Shown here in pieces: positions 1,401-7,863 of a stretch of 24,177 bases of DNA. This stretch comes from a virus. The stretch is taken from the UHGV virus genome UHGV-0274038; one strand, given 5' to 3'. The notes beneath the pieces were generated by a model, which was not told the origin of the DNA, searched no databases, and was given only the letters and a program-made list of their open reading frames with translations. Position numbers and translations under genes: made by a program. Every line of letters starts with the position of its first letter. Within the stretch, counting starts at the first letter, position 1.

Positions 1401-1485
1401 AGTCAGAGATAACAATCAACTAATACTGTTTTGTTGATTTTTGCTTGTAATTGGCGTTCTGGTCTGATTTTTGTGGAGTAAGTTG

Positions 1486-1869
1486 ATGCGTGATATTCAG
1501 ATGGTTCTTGAGCGTTGGGGAGCGTGGGCGGCTAATAATCATGAAGATGTGACCTGGTCGTCCATTGCCGCCGGTTTTAAGGGATTAATTCCTTCAAAAG
1601 TAAAATCTCGCCCGCAATGTTGTGACGATGACGCGATGATCATTTGCGGGTGCATGGCCCGTCTGAAAAAGAACAACAGCGATTTGCACGATTTATTAGT
1701 AGATTATTATGTAGTCGGTATGACATTCATGTCACTGGCAGGTAAGCATTGCTGCTCTGATGGTTATATCGGGAAAAGGTTACAAAAGGCTGAGGGCATA
1801 ATTGAAGGGATGTTAATGGCATTAGATATCCGGTTAGAGATGGATATCGTTGTTAATAACTCTAATTAA
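1486..1869 (+). CDS. Q: Late-gene antiterminator Q (phage-21/DLP12 QuuD-like), 127 aa
   Basis: [26 protein letters not shown]...[16 protein letters not shown]... is the last gene of the nin module before the lysis region. ATG at 1486 preferred over the upstream TTG at 1471 used by the ORF track. Confidence 0.8.
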
Positions 1870-2057: not shown

Positions 2058-3140
2058 TTAGAACTGGTAAACCATACCTACAGCAACGATATCATCGGTA
2101 GCAACGCCAGATGCTTTCGTGAAATCGCTCTTATCAATCAGGTTGATTTTGTAGTCAACAAAAGTGGACATATTTTTGTTGAAGTAATAGGTTGCACCTA
2201 CATCAACATATTCAACCAGGTCCTGATCACCCCAAACACCCAAGTCTTTTCCTTTAGAATGCAGGTAAGCAACGGATGGACGCAGGCCGAAGTCGAACTG
2301 ATATTGTGCAACAGCTTCGAAGTTTTGTGCTTTGTTGGCAATATGGTTATTACCAAAAACAGTCATGTTCTGGGTTTCAGAATAGGTGGTGGCCAGATAG
2401 ATGTTGTTCGCATCATATTTCAGACCAGCTGCCCATACTTCAGCATTTTGACCAGAAGCATTCAGACCGTTGTTACCGTAGATAACCTGATTATTAGTGC
2501 GATCAGATTTAGCATAGGTTGCACCCACGCCGAATCCTTCATACTCATAAGTAGTTGAGAAACCGAAACCATCGCCATTAGCTTCAGTTACTTCATTTCG
2601 GTCATTTTTGCCCTGATACTGAGCTGCAAAGTTCAGGCCATCAACCAGACCAAAGAAGTCGTTGTTACGATAAGTTGCAACACCTGTGGTGCGACCAGTC
2701 ATGAATACATCTGTTTGGGTCCAGGTATCGCCACCGAATTCTGGCAGAACGTCGGTCCATGCACCAATATCGTATGCTACACCGTAGTTACGGCCATAAT
2801 CGATGGAGCCGTAGTCACCGAATTTCAGGCCAGCGAAGGCAAGACGGGTTTTATCTTTGGAGGAACCTTGAGATTCAGCGCGGTTGCCTTTGAATTCATA
2901 TTCCCACTGACCGAAACCAGTCAGTTGATCGTTGATTTGGGTTTCACCTTTGAAGCCAAGACGGGCATAAGTAGTATCACCATCATCTGCATCATTAGAG
3001 GAGAAGTAGTGCTTAGCATTAACTTTCCCGTACAGATCCAGCTTGTTACTGTCTTTATTATAAATTTCAGCTGCCTGAGCAGACATCGCCATCAGTACTG
3101 ATGCAGCTACAGCAGAAATTGCCACTGTTAATTTTTTCAT
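2058..3140 (-). CDS. nmpC: Outer-membrane general porin, NmpC/OmpD/OmpC family (360 aa), prophage moron
   Basis: Signal peptide [23 protein letters not shown] then AEIYNKD...; aromatic-rich beta-strand pattern and C-terminal ...VAVGMVYQF typical of 16-strand porins. Antisense to the phage genes, between Q and the lysis cassette as in DLP12. Confidence 0.9.
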
Positions 3141-3713: not shown

Positions 3714-3929
3714 ATGAAATCCATGGATAAGTTAACAACGGGTGTCGCCTATGGCACCTCAGCAGGTAGTGCCGGGTACTGGTTTTTACAGCTGCTCGAT
3801 AAAGTCACGCCCTCACAGTGGGCAGCAATAGGTGTGCTGGGTAGCCTGGTATTTGGCCTGCTGACGTACCTGACAAACCTTTATTTCAAGATTAAAGAAG
3901 ATAAGCGCAAGGCTGCGAGAGGTGAATAA
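3714..3929 (+). CDS. S: Class II holin, phage-21 S-type pinholin (71 aa) with dual-start motif
   Basis: [71 protein letters not shown]. Two transmembrane segments; Met1-Lys-Ser-Met4 allows holin and antiholin starts. Close to recalled S21. SD GAGGTGGGG upstream. Confidence 0.9.
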
Positions 3930-4426
3930 TGCCTCCATCATTACGAAAAGCTGTTGCTGCTGCTATTGGTGGCGGGGCTATTGCTATAGCATCTGTGTTA
4001 ATCACTGGCCCAAGTGGTAACGATGGTCTGGAAGGTGTGAGACATAATCCTTACAAAGACATAGTTGGTGTATGGACTGTATGTTACGGGCATACAGGAA
4101 AAGACATCATTCCCGGTAAAACGTATACCGAAGCAGAGTGCAAAGCCCTCCTGAATAAAGACCTTGCCACTGTCGCCAGACAAATTAACCGGTACATCAA
4201 AGTCGATATACCGGAAACAACGCGCGGCGCTCTTTACTCGTTCGTCTACAACGTGGGTGCTGGCAATTTCAGAACATCGACGCTTCTTCGCAAAATAAAC
4301 CAGGGTGATATTAAAGGCGCATGTGATCAGCTACGGCGCTGGACATACGCTGGCGGTAATCAATGGAAAGGACTGATGACTCGCCGTGAGATTGAGCGTG
4401 AAGTCTGTTTGTGGGGGAAACAATGA
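3929..4426 (+). CDS. R: SAR endolysin, phage-21 R-type lysozyme (165 aa)
   Basis: N-terminal Gly/Ala-rich signal-anchor-release segment ([18 protein letters not shown]) followed by T4-lysozyme-type catalytic region (GLEGV...D...T). Start overlaps the S stop (TAATG). Confidence 0.9.
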
Positions 4427-4881
4427 GCAGAGTAACCGCGATTATCTCCGCTCTGGTTATCTGCATCATCGTCTGCCTGTCATTGGCTGTTAATCATTAC
4501 CGTGATAACGCAATCGCCTACAAAGAGCAGCGCGATAACAAGGCCAGTGAACTGGAGAAGGCGAACGCCACCATCGCTGACATGCGGAAGCGTCAACGTG
4601 ATGTAGCAGAACTCGACGCAAGATACACAAAGGAGCTTGCTGATGCTAACGCGACTATCGAAAGTCTCCGTGCTGATGTTTCTGCTGGGCGTAAGCGCCT
4701 GCAAGTCGCCGCCACCTGTGCAAAGTCAACGACCGGAGCCAGCGGCATGGGCGATGGAGAAAGCCCAGGACTTACAGCAGATGCTGAACTCAATTATTAC
4801 CGTCTCCGAAGTGGAATCGACAAGATAACCGCGCAGGTTAACTACCTGCAGGAATACATCAGGACGCAATGCCTGAAATAA
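4423..4881 (+). CDS. Rz: Rz inner-membrane spanin subunit (153 aa)
   Basis: [26 protein letters not shown]... single N-terminal TM helix then a coiled-coil periplasmic domain. ATG at 4423 preferred over the ORF-track start at 4411. Confidence 0.85.
4637..4828 (+). CDS. Rz1: Rz1 outer-membrane lipoprotein spanin subunit, embedded in the +1 frame of Rz
   Basis: Signal peptide with lipobox LLGVSAC, then Pro-rich [13 protein letters not shown]. Strong SD AAGGAG 7 nt upstream of the ATG. Lies entirely inside Rz. Confidence 0.75.
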
Positions 4882-4937: not shown

Positions 4938-5086
4938 ACATCTGAATTTCACAGCGCATCTCACGCGCATATTACATCACCCGAGCCTTTCAGAAAGTTG
5001 AGCCTGAGAACTGCCGTATATGGTGGCGACCATCTCGGGGCGGCTTTTCTGTGAGACAGGCTCACTTTCTAAAAGGTAAAGACGCT

Positions 5087-5575
5087 ATGAACCAATTAGA
5101 AGAAAAGCTTCAAAGAATGATTTCCTTATACAAGGAAGATAACTGCCAAAAAGTTCCTGAAAACATCGCAGAGTTAATGGAATTGGCAAGTGAATTTTCT
5201 GGCATGCTTAAGTCGTCAGGTGTTCGGTCAGCGTTCTTTGTTGAAATGCTGATGCACGGCGGACTTATGGCAACAATGAGACGTGTAATGGAAGACCAGA
5301 GAAAAGAACCTCCTCAGGTATACGTTTTGTCATCGAAGAAAACTGGGCTAACCAAAATTGGGTATTCATCCAACATTCCACAACGCATCAAATCGCTTGG
5401 CAACTCTGGACCAGACTGCTTGAAGCTTGAGTGCCTGATCCCTGGTGGAAGAGAAACTGAAAACATGCTTCATCGCAAATTTGCCGCAAAGAGAAAGCAC
5501 GGTGAATGGTTCGCCCTGTCCAAGGATGACATTGAGGGATTGAAATCTGTAGCGATTACTTCTGATGGCTATTAA
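5087..5575 (+). CDS. Accessory protein with C-terminal T5orf172 (GIY-YIG-like) nuclease domain and unrecognised helical N-terminal domain (162 aa)
   Basis: C-terminal half QVYVLSSKKTGLTKIGYSSNIPQRIKSLGN...ENMLHRKFAAKRKHGEWFALSKDD fits the T5orf172/Mug113 pattern (YVL...GL-KIG-S...R...E-LH-F...GEWF). N-terminal about 85 aa has no family I recognise. ATG at 5087 with AAAGG upstream; the ORF-track start at 5051 is non-ATG. Confidence 0.65.
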   Translation: MNQLEEKLQRMISLYKEDNCQKVPENIAELMELASEFSGMLKSSGVRSAFFVEMLMHGGLMATMRRVMEDQRKEPPQVYVLSSKKTGLTKIGYSSNIPQRIKSLGNSGPDCLKLECLIPGGRETENMLHRKFAAKRKHGEWFALSKDDIEGLKSVAITSDGY

Positions 5576-5612
5576 TGCTTGTTTAGAGCAATTTTCATAA
5601 CAACTCTTCATT

Positions 5613-5690
5613 ACAAAGCCCATCTACTGGTGGGCTTGATAATGAAACCGTGATTTACATCCCCACAATCCGGGTATGTAAAAGATAGTT
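5613..5690. repeat. Copy 1 of a degenerate direct repeat: hairpin AAGCCCA/TGGGCTT + GATAATG + CCCCACA..GGGTAT..TAAAAGATA
   Basis: Stem 5616..5622 with 5631..5637, then GATAATG 5638..5644. Shares core, flanking motif and downstream CCC-ACA/GGG-AT/TAAAAG blocks with copy 2. Confidence 0.45.
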
Positions 5691-5889
5691 CAGGCGAGAA
5701 CGGATTTAACTAAATCTGTGCGCCACCAGTTAACGGCAGTACCACGAAACAACCCAAGCCAGTAAGTGGGGAAATAACACCGGCAGCCACTGAAAGATGA
5801 ACCTCCTGCCTTATGGCAAAAAAGATTCTTTGTGGTGGCGGACTGATGGAAAGACATCCTAATTTCAGCCAAACATTGAAGGAGTTGTT

Positions 5890-5961
5890 ATGTCAGCAGA
5901 AGGTTTCAATAACCCATCAAAATTCCGGGATGAGTGGGATAGCAGCGTAAAGAGTAAGTGA
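5890..5961 (+). CDS. Small ORF candidate (23 aa, MSAEGFNNPSKFRDEWDSSVKSK) with canonical SD
   Basis: GAAGGAG 6 nt upstream of the ATG. Hydrophilic peptide lying between the two repeat copies. No known family; could be a leader peptide, a small protein or chance. Confidence 0.2.
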   Translation: MSAEGFNNPSKFRDEWDSSVKSK

Positions 5962-5968
5962 TGCCATC

Positions 5969-6060
5969 ACAAAAGCCATTCCCTACAGAGTGGCTTTGAT
6001 AATGGCTTATACCCTACACGGGATAACTTAACTGATATCCCTTTTAAAGGATAAAGGTAT
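5969..6060. repeat. Copy 2 of the degenerate direct repeat, with alternative pairings and a terminator-like hairpin
   Basis: Stem AAAGCCA (5972..5978) with TGGCTTT (5991..5997), then GATAATG 5998..6004. The segment AAGCCATT can alternatively pair with AATGGCTT (6001..6008). Followed by hairpin GGGATA...TATCCC (6020..6041) and TTTT. Confidence 0.45.
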
Positions 6061-6208
6061 TCAAGCCTGACACATCATGCGCTGTATCGTCGCCGTATTC
6101 CCGTATTAACAGAGACCGTAGCCCGACGGGGAACTCCTTCTGCGCGAGTGTGCGGGAATAATCAAAAACGATGCACACCGGGGTTACCGGGTACACATAT
6201 TTCATCAT
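6044..6208 (-). CDS. Hypothetical small ORF (54 aa) immediately downstream of ybcV
   Basis: MMKYVYPVTPVCIVFDYSRTLAQKEFPVGLRSLLIREYGDDTAHDVSGLNTFIL. Starts 45 nt after the ybcV stop on the same strand. No good SD and no recognised family, so low confidence. Confidence 0.2.
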   Translation of the reverse strand: MMKYVYPVTPVCIVFDYSRTLAQKEFPVGLRSLLIREYGDDTAHDVSGLNTFIL

Positions 6209-6253
6209 GCCAGCGAGTCCGGTTCTGGCACGGAAGAAACCGGACGTTATGAT

Positions 6254-6664
6254 TTAGTGCGGAAATATTTGTGTAGTGTTCTGAATGTTCTCAGTAAAGA
6301 GTAATGAATTATCAAAGGTATAGTAATACCTTTTGTTTTCGTGGATATTTGTAATCCATCTGAAAACCCCTGCTGTAGCAAGATTTTTCCTGTATTCGTA
6401 AAATGATAACTCTCCTGATTTGAATCCTTTTAATGTGGCTTCTATAAGGCATTTATTTTTTGAAAATCTTACATTTACAACCTTACCCTGTCCTTTTATT
6501 AAAACCGTATTATCGTTTTCAAGAACAAGATGAATATTCTCTGTGGCTAAATAGTAAATGTAATGTGAGACATTGTGACGTTTTAGTTCAGAATAAAACC
6601 AGTGATAGTTTAAATTATTTCGCACTTTATCGAATATTTGTTTAAAAATGGCAACCTGAGCCAT
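6254..6664 (-). CDS. ybcV: YbcV-like protein (DUF1398), 136 aa
   Basis: [58 protein letters not shown]...[25 protein letters not shown] matches recalled DLP12 YbcV. SD GGAAGG 7 nt upstream of the internal ATG chosen as start. Confidence 0.8.
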
Positions 6665-6721
6665 TGTAGTACCTTCCATGTGATATGAAGGTACCTAGTC
6701 TGCACGATTATCTAAATTGCT

Positions 6722-6955
6722 TCAATCTGGTCTGACCTGCTTTCTGAGCAATTCAGTAATGTCACTCTTTTCTTTGTTTGCTTCAGGCGAAACTCTTTTT
6801 TCTGAGCACAGTCTTCGGCGGCAGGCTTCAATGACCCAGGCTGAGAAATTCCCGGACCCTTTTTGATCAAGAGCGATGTTAATTTGTTCAATCATTTGGT
6901 TAGGAAAGCGGATGTTGCGGGTTGTTGTTCTGCGGGTTCTGTTCTTCGTTGACAT
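6722..6955 (-). CDS. ylcI: YlcI-like small protein (DUF3950), possible ribbon-helix-helix DNA binder, 77 aa
   Basis: MSTKNRTRRTTTRNIRFPNQMIEQINIALDQKGSGNFSAWVIEACRRRL... has a strand-helix-helix pattern. Sits upstream of ybcV on the same strand, next to cos. Confidence 0.6.
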   Translation of the reverse strand: MSTKNRTRRTTTRNIRFPNQMIEQINIALDQKGSGNFSAWVIEACRRRLCSEKRVSPEANKEKSDITELLRKQVRPD

Positions 6956-7343: not shown

Positions 7344-7863
7344 ATGGAAGTCAACAAAAAGCAGCTGGCTGACATTTTCGGTGCGAGTATCCGTACCATT
7401 CAGAACTGGCAGGAACAGGGAATGCCCGTTCTGCGAGGCGGTGGCAAGGGTAATGAGGTGCTTTATGACTCTGCCGCCGTCATAAAATGGTATGCCGAAA
7501 GGGATGCTGAAATTGAGAACGAAAAGCTGCGCCGGGAGGTTGAAGAACTGCGGCAGGCCAGCGAGGCAGATCTCCAGCCAGGGACTATTGAGTACGAACG
7601 CCATCGACTTACGCGTGCGCAGGCCGACGCACAGGAACTGAAGAATGCCAGAGACTCCGCTGAAGTGGTGGAAACCGCATTCTGTACTTTCGTGTTGTCG
7701 CGGATCGCAGGTGAAATTGCCAGTATTCTCGACGGGATCCCCCTGTCGGTGCAGCGGCGTTTTCCGGAACTGGAAAACCGACATGTTGATTTCCTGAAAC
7801 GGGATATCATCAAAGCCATGAACAAAGCAGCCGCGCTGGATGAACTGATACCGGGGTTGCTGA

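Follow-up and report, generated by a model that had tools for sequence, protein, structure and literature searches.

A putative 23-codon micro-protein gene in a hairpin-bordered late-operon slot of lambdoid prophages

Introduction

Several short phage peptides are known to bind a host protein, among them T4 Stp (26 aa), lambda Kil (47 aa), and T7 Gp0.4. Other very short products, such as TnaC (24 aa) and SecM, are regulatory arrest or leader peptides. Classical morons have a promoter and a factor-independent terminator of their own, an arrangement that lets them be expressed from the prophage; the morons of lambdoid phages were reportedly described in HK97 and HK022 by Juhala and coworkers in 2000. 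Short phage peptides have been reviewed as a class (PMC11323111).

We analyzed a window of 24,177 nucleotides (virus genome UHGV-0274038, one strand; all coordinates refer to this whole stretch) from a lambdoid (DLP12/phage-21-like) prophage, of which it is the late region. An original prediction had singled out a 23-codon open reading frame (ORF) at 5890–5961 and proposed that it could be a regulatory leader peptide, a real micro-protein, or the decayed start of a former gene. Our comparisons place it in a family of undescribed proteins of 23–30 residues from temperate Enterobacterales phages, and the kind to which this family belongs, phage accessory micro-proteins, is already known.

Results

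The reading frame and its surroundings

The frame (hereafter the micro-gene) lies in a stretch without a long ORF (5576–6253) within the following arrangement of features.

1471 to 1869, plus strand: antiterminator Q gene (Pfam Phage_antitermQ, 180.8 bits), which defines the late operon
2058 to 3140, minus strand: complete Gram-negative porin gene (Porin_1, 507 bits), between Q and the holin gene
3714 to 4881, plus strand: lysis cassette, upstream of the micro-gene and on the same strand, with genes for an S21-type holin (3714 to 3929), a lysozyme (3929 to 4426), and Rz (4411 to 4881), all from Pfam
5051 to 5575: T5orf172/GIY-YIG-like gene (Pfam)
5607 to 5646, plus strand: upstream hairpin, 3′ of the T5orf172/GIY-YIG-like gene and of the same family as the hairpin at 5963
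5719 to 5858, plus strand: conserved noncoding block of 140 nt, the left border of the slot
5859 to 5962, plus strand: cassette of 104 bp (Shine-Dalgarno sequence and ORF), an insertion relative to collinear relatives in the alignment
5878 to 5884, plus strand: Shine-Dalgarno sequence GAAGGAG, with a 5-nt spacer to the ATG
5890 to 5961, plus strand: putative micro-protein gene, 23 codons and TGA, assigned from homologues, selection, helix prediction, and conserved positions
5963 to 6006, plus strand: hairpin directly after the micro-gene stop, of the CATTACA...GATAATG family that follows accessory genes
6254 to 6679, minus strand: DUF1398 (Pfam)
6722 to 6955, minus strand: DUF3950 (Pfam)

YbcO and RusA ORFs are also found in the window (Pfam). 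We take the porin gene to be the classical moron of DLP12-like prophages (nmpC-like). The ORFs at 7344 and 7864 presumably encode Nu1-type small and large terminase subunits, which they resemble judging by the lambda Nu1 N-terminus and by the annotation of Chlobot.

The near-consensus Shine-Dalgarno (SD) sequence that had been claimed for this frame is present: GAAGGAG is followed by the spacer TTGTT (5885–5889) and by ATG at 5890, and the frame closes with TGA at 5959–5961. Its product, MSAEGFNNPSKFRDEWDSSVKSK (23 aa), is hydrophilic, as had been stated, and has four acidic and four basic residues. The further claim that such an SD and ATG would be unusual for a chance ORF did not stand, however. 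The pattern AGGAG-N4–9-ATG occurs nine times on the plus strand of the window, against 4.6 times per shuffle counting both strands, and shuffled windows contained about two such sites per shuffle with at least 20 open codons. The SD, the ATG, and 23 open codons are thus by themselves within chance expectation, and the significance of this candidate frame is a matter of comparative data, not of the SD-ATG site alone.

Neither the 129 RefSeq E. coli genomes with the window's form nor phage HK544 annotate the ORF, and the 23-residue form had no annotation in any genome record examined. In the literature that we searched, we found no Ribo-seq, proteomics, or reporter data on the 23-codon ORF. ATG 5890 is plausibly a translation start that annotation has missed. 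At the site of the micro-gene, the annotation of Salmonella phage Emek shows just an overlapping ORF in a different frame. This ORF, ‘orf53’ (L009:1100–1261), corresponds to a 45-codon ORF at 5813–5950 (+) of the window; the start codon of orf53-type ORFs is mutated in some relatives, and their C-terminus is set by the content of the slot. Such overlapping ORFs are probably a misannotation that masks a real 23-codon gene.

Homologues in seven genera of Enterobacterales

The original prediction had proposed a tblastn search of the peptide and a check on the conservation of the SD-ATG and reading frame in relatives, and both were informative. Searching 50,697 phage records by tblastn returned identical copies in HK544 and in Salmonella phage Emek, as well as full-length matches of 52–61% identity at unrelated places, each of them an ORF of exactly 23 codons with an ATG and an SD. 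Homologues of 23 codons were found in APC_JM3.2 (MATQGFDNPSKFRDEWDKQAEGK) and in the Proteus phages Brookers (MAVEGSDNPVKFREELDKSIPKK) and Pm34 (MAAQGFDNPTQFREELDKSIPKE). Sensitive blastn with the ORF DNA (65–70% sensitivity) recovered the identical type alone, which indicates that the family is conserved at the protein level.

A pattern scan of IMG/VR gave 339 confirmed loci, and bacterial genomes taken one per species gave 21 loci from seven genera, all Enterobacterales (Escherichia, Enterobacter, Atlantibacter, Trabulsiella, Proteus, Providencia, and Morganella). The identical E. coli-type sequence was also seen in two MAG bins of implausible taxonomy. Prophages of the seven genera have in common the core G-F-D-N-P-S-K-F-R-[DE]-E-[WL]-D, and the stop codon follows six (rarely seven or more) residues past this core, with TGA, TAA, and TAG all used. 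In most family members examined, an SD-like GGAG, AGGAG, or GAGG precedes the start by 5–8 nt, although it is weak in Trabulsiella, and a minority of the type-A alleles have GAAGAAG in place of GAAGGAG. The SD-like sequence is kept even though the upstream DNA of the members is unrelated, so that the frame in all seven genera, and the SD in most members, persist despite unrelated flanks.

One of two main forms is carried by ∼340 of the 5426 complete E. coli genomes: the window's form by 129, and a second form by ∼214, in which just the adjacent terS or hypothetical genes are annotated at that place. The micro-gene is also found in many phages of Salmonella, Enterobacter, Proteus, and Providencia. 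Positions 5700–6060 of the window are 100% identical to the chromosome of E. coli 214-4 (NZ_CP025840.1, 151406–151766, minus strand), which is an available carrier.

With a tandem-dimer profile of the short peptide, we recovered 54 clusters from the protein database, mostly of 27–49 residues and none with a Pfam domain. P0024 (MVIKVCSGSQGFDNPSKFRDEWDKQAEGK, 29 aa), present on 445 contigs, is named merely ‘uncharacterised protein’. We looked up four exact 23-residue sequences in a collection of 15 billion predicted proteins and found none of them, an absence implying that gene callers systematically lose genes of fewer than 30 codons. Some members are extended at the N-terminus or have C-terminal tails 4–6 residues longer; the core of ∼15 residues may therefore be the whole functional unit.

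The predicted product

AlphaFold2, run with the family alignment, predicted a single helix, PSKFRDEWDKQTE in P0023, equivalent to residues 9–21 of the window peptide (mean pLDDT 71.8 overall, block means ∼78–79 over the helix), a model of moderate confidence. Among 62 distinct cores, entropy was lowest at R13, P9, F12, E15, G5, and D17, with W or L at position 16, and highest at positions 19–21 (1.8–2.1 bits); the last four to six residues are the most variable part of the peptide. On a helical wheel, F12, W16, R13, D17, and E15 fall within an arc of ∼200°, and the opposite positions 11, 14, 18, and 21 vary. This one-sided conservation on the modeled helix is the pattern expected of a docking helix.

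No hydrophobic or signal segment was detected in any family member. A secreted signaling peptide of the arbitrium AimP type was also considered, and neither a signal sequence nor a conserved adjacent gene was found in the members and loci compared. Translation would yield a soluble peptide with one N-capped α-helix, at about the residues modeled. We propose that the peptide would act in trans, with a conserved face formed by F12 and W/L16 and flanked by R13, E15, and D17 docking on a protein partner. From the model and the conservation together, we lean slightly toward regarding the micro-protein as a trans-acting helical binder.

A late-operon slot with exchangeable content

The cassette has the layout CTAAT...SD...ORF...TGAT and is placed between the noncoding block, which ends with ...GGAAAGACATC at 5858, and the hairpin. 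In the alignment, HK620, APC_JM3.2, AVS0226, and Chlobot join ...GACATC straight to the hairpin, i.e., their slot is empty, and a gene of the Phage_gp49_66 family (Gp49/gene-66) takes up this slot in Sf6 and in many prophages. We examined 120 IMG/VR loci (L124–L243) sampled through the left anchor of the slot: the slot was empty in 68, held the micro-ORF in 13, and held Gp49/gene-66 genes in ∼16, the rest being occupied by an ORF of 56–57 aa (MVSVNKDQKEGVEY...), 71 aa (MDDNGNQW...), 80 aa, or 246 aa.

Other carriers place the micro-gene differently. It lies 5 nt upstream of a gp3-type terS in P22-like prophages (type B), upstream of a Gp49-family gene in Brookers, directly after spanin genes in Enterobacter, Proteus, Providencia, and Morganella, and upstream of holin and lysis genes in one locus. 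The setting was the late operon in every context examined, and our neighbor analysis of the micro-gene loci revealed no constant neighbor or co-occurring gene. Because many close relatives lack it, the micro-gene is accessory. In Enterobacter prophages with the micro-gene, the lysis genes are preceded by an isrJ-family RNA and then one or two tRNA genes (L094:983–1217 and L112:1828–1985, the latter downstream of Q; above the Rfam gathering score).

A scan of the plus strand between 5400 and 6400 found no σ70-like site upstream of the micro-gene, although such a consensus scan may miss weak or non-σ70 promoters, and the promoter and terminator scan returned nothing relevant. The SD of the micro-gene in Proteus phages directly follows a terminator-like hairpin, with only ∼14 nt from hairpin to ATG. 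We infer from the missing promoter-like site and from this hairpin that the micro-gene, whose slot follows Q and the lysis genes and precedes the terminase genes, would be transcribed solely within the Q-antiterminated late transcript.

In three independent loci, an anti-defense gene lies immediately upstream of the micro-gene, one of the Acb2/Tad1-hairpin type and two Tad2-like (L115:3737–3976, L122:2496–2759, and a 173-aa ORF in another locus). This suggests that the post-lysis accessory region doubles as an anti-defense island. An anti-defense role for the micro-protein itself is a tentative suggestion that we hold to be less likely than not, since it is drawn from the neighborhood in three loci within a region that collects many kinds of accessory genes.

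The partner of the peptide would more likely be a conserved host or host-defense protein than a phage structural or lysis protein, because the family coexists with unrelated holins, endolysins, terminases, and portals. The choice of a host or defense target over a phage target is the weakest step of the proposed mechanism. A real gene acting on the phage's own late machinery, i.e., on packaging or lysis timing, would agree with the position of the micro-gene between the lysis cassette and the terminase genes, directly upstream of terS in ∼214 complete E. coli genomes, and directly after spanin genes in Enterobacter, Proteus, and Providencia. That interval is, however, the default place for any late-operon accessory gene. 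Holins, endolysins, and portals come from different families depending on the carrier, as do the small terminase subunits (Nu1-like, gp3-like, Terminase_2, and DUF2280), and close relatives with the same machinery lack the micro-gene. We consider an action on the phage's own machinery unlikely, and favor the host or host-defense partner.

Hairpins, the noncoding block, and the possibility of a leader peptide

The two repeats between which the ORF had been placed proved to be related imperfect hairpins (5607–5646 and 5963–6006) with the common sequence GTGG(G/C)(C/T)TTGATAATG. They belong to a family of the form CATTACA-stem-loop-stem-(T/C)GATAATG, which sits just past the stops of accessory genes of phages from Escherichia, Enterobacter, and Trabulsiella, with 143 copies in one orientation relative to the late genes and one in the other across the loci compared (further copies are at L112:4767, L114:1100, L102:1196, and elsewhere). 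Twelve pairs are common to the family; they are 97.6% paired, with compensatory changes in five, and covariation is 0.477, vs. 0.234 when shuffled and at most 0.19 when slid. The family lacks a U-tract on the gene strand and matches no Rfam family; the hairpin at 5963–6006 has a short U-run on the opposite strand. These hairpins may serve as cassette punctuation, whether as an mRNA 3′ stabilizer, an opposite-strand terminator, or a recombination boundary. Because the hairpin also trails unrelated genes and is present where the slot is empty, it belongs to the backbone and not to the ORF.

A query of 361 nt (spanning the noncoding block and hairpin B) had matches in 2558 of the 5426 complete E. 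coli genomes, mostly partial, and in many Salmonella and Shigella phages, with identity of 93–100%. The last 35 nt of the block had no substitutions among the equal-length variants (about half of 50). Small ORFs within the block lose their start codons in some variants, and the block contains no conserved ORF and matches no Rfam family; its variation is too low for a covariation test. The closest match, Proteo-phage-1 (RF03044) at 5753–5788, scored 19.8 bits (E = 0.57) against a gathering score of 42 bits, and it was rejected since both hairpins of the model are deleted and the match is limited to the single-stranded ends; RF03044 had no hit in 20 related loci. At the gathering threshold, Rfam returned nothing in the whole window, our tRNA scan found none, and a microRNA hairpin match obtained in E-value mode on 5500–6300 was attributed to chance. 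In the 20 related loci, Rfam returned only isrJ and tRNAs, elsewhere in those loci. Single-sequence folding of the ORF region and the upstream block was unremarkable on both strands (z from −1.45 to −1.57).

The regulatory leader peptide of the original prediction would be a cis-acting upstream ORF whose translation, or whose stalling in the manner of TnaC or SecM, controls the post-stop hairpin or the next gene, e.g., terS. Such a leader would be consistent with the stable conserved hairpin 2–4 nt past the stop in the window and in Trabulsiella, and with the other hairpins found in Proteus and Enterobacter. Moreover, the type-B ORF ends 5 nt before the ATG of terS, and its last codons, GAAGGGAAA, could act as the SD of terS. 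With the exit-tunnel geometry known from TnaC and SecM, the conserved F and W/D would sit 7–11 residues from the C-terminus, inside the tunnel at termination. What lies downstream varies, however, being the hairpin, terS, a Gp49-family gene, overlapping small genes, or a gap of 200 nt, and no cis partner emerged. The hairpin is a backbone element, as described above, and relatives without the ORF express the same downstream genes. The four to six C-terminal residues, which would be at the peptidyl-transferase center, are the most variable, and they are followed by still longer tails in some members. These points disfavor the leader, which we regard as quite improbable, and leave a trans-acting peptide as the preferred reading.

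Selection on the reading frame

Variable columns in 23 distinct 23-codon alleles numbered 16, 13, and 23 at the first, second, and third codon positions, respectively, and the summed entropies were 15.2, 11.8, and 24.1. Mean pN/pS was 0.40 over the frame and 0.26 over the core (codons 5–18), with pS near saturation; these selection statistics come from very short sequences with few sites, and the pairwise comparisons are nonindependent. Stops are frequent throughout the +2 frame and occur in the +1 frame of some members. The window's allele group, which is >99% identical across most carriers, had three synonymous changes and no nonsynonymous change. The recombinant allele MSAEGFNNPSKFRDEWDKQTEGK (L075, IMG/VR 2648501336_000006, match 2501–2569) has an N-terminal half of the window type and a C-terminal half of the terS-adjacent type, which places a mosaic junction within the 69-nt coding sequence with the frame preserved. 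All 13 cassettes retrieved by the flanking anchor alone, i.e., without use of the peptide, were intact, but this is weak evidence because the cassettes are nearly identical.

A chance ORF, conserved because of a noncoding RNA or DNA element or seen widely because of recent horizontal spread, would accord with the two or so SD-ATG-ORF sites expected per window, with the strong conservation of the surrounding noncoding DNA, and with the near identity of the window's allele group, which could be young. It does not explain why divergent members are alike in amino acids without detectable DNA similarity, or why variation peaks at third codon positions; the other frames, moreover, contain stops in many members. 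Folding of the region (z = −1.57) and the Rfam searches gave no sign of a structured RNA in its place. We find a chance ORF very hard to accept. The frame, the stop, and the amino acids are conserved across genera, the SD is kept, and synonymous changes are in excess, as would be expected of the real micro-protein that had been offered as one reading. On these comparative grounds, 5890–5961 is very probably a real, selected coding gene.

A decayed 5′ end of a longer gene, left after a deletion in the accessory region and likewise among the readings first offered, is extremely improbable: the slot does hold full-length genes in relatives (e.g., Sf6 gene 66) and the database does contain fusions of the peptide to longer proteins (P0050, P0055, and P0061), but the same 23-codon length and stop position are seen in distant genera that use different stop codons, neither Sf6 gene 66 nor hkbN is related to the peptide, and the short form cannot well be a remnant when no longer parent family was found among the 5.8 billion and 1.84 billion proteins searched, an exhaustive HMMER search of the 1.84 billion representatives giving just 29 hits, each of them tiny or else an evident fusion by read-through or deletion. 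P0050 arose by a deletion in a defective prophage that joined the ORF to P22 gp7, and P0055 by a 1-nt read-through of DUF2560; both are uninformative on function.

Comparison with described families

Profile searches of PHROGs, NCBIfam, and PADLOC placed the peptide in no family, the match to phrog_35855 (E = 0.23, 12.7 bits) being at chance level. Pfam returned DUF2740 (PF10872) alone, in three of five members, at 13.2–13.5 bits against a gathering score of 27. These members match positions 19–32 of the 43 in the profile (E ∼0.06–0.075), two of the five have no match, and none of the 54 database relatives has a precomputed PF10872 assignment. With scores below the 27-bit cut-off, membership in DUF2740 was rejected. 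A PDB sequence search gave a segment of SoxR at chance level (E = 1.8).

Literature searches on the peptide strings, DUF2740, and Proteo-phage-1 found no papers, and the intergenic smORF catalogue of Enterobacteriaceae does not list the peptide in its supplements. The slot region is outside the scope of the Sf6 evolution paper. The ‘orf80’ lead was an unrelated Listeria gene, and Sf6 genes 65 and 68 and Pm34 gp6, like the hkbN and Sf6 gene 66 mentioned above, are unrelated to the peptide.

Discussion

We have proposed that the micro-gene is expressed late in a Q-dependent manner and that its product is a trans-acting helix binding a host or host-defense partner. Taking the micro-gene, its expression, and its mode of action together, we think this reading fairly probable. 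Its most specific version, which is speculative and in our view rather unlikely, is that a 23-residue helix made late neutralizes a conserved Enterobacterales protein (e.g., an immune sensor triggered by late proteins) and is mobile as a promoter-less, hairpin-delimited cassette of 104 bp.

If translated, the micro-gene would be a widespread gene, given its presence in about 340 complete E. coli genomes. The micro-protein could reveal a new host or defense target of late phage gene expression and, if the counter-defense or host-takeover reading is true, it would be among the smallest phage effectors of that sort. The peptide is tractable: it can be synthesized chemically, it has a clear conserved face for mutagenesis, and nature offers isogenic comparisons between empty and filled slots. 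The hairpin-delimited slot is also a compact natural system for cassette exchange between lambdoid and P22-like phages.

How the locus compares with described systems depends on which property is considered. The similarity to TnaC and SecM lies in length, in conserved aromatic and acidic residues before the stop, and in a hairpin right after it; in contrast to them, the micro-gene has no fixed regulated gene, its C-terminus and tail are variable, and its hairpin is an element of the backbone. The sponges Acb2, Tad1, and Tad2 come from the same late accessory region, and the micro-gene lies immediately downstream of such genes in three loci. They are, however, proteins of ∼80–170 residues with folded domains and known ligands, and no homology of the micro-protein to them was found in the PADLOC, Pfam, and PHROG searches.

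T4 Stp, lambda Kil, and T7 Gp0.4 resemble the micro-protein in being very small, soluble, accessory, and phage-encoded, with no signal peptide, and the predicted action, a short helix docking onto a partner, is similar as well. They differ in being early genes, whereas the micro-gene belongs to a late operon. T4 Stp and lambda Kil come closest to it in kind, but there is no sequence similarity. As in a moron, the cassette is a dispensable late-region insertion between sequences that are adjacent in relatives, with a hairpin behind it. It departs from a moron in having no detected promoter, no U-tract on the gene strand of its hairpin, and a length of just 104 bp; ‘promoter-less late-transcript cassette’ is a better label for it than ‘moron’.
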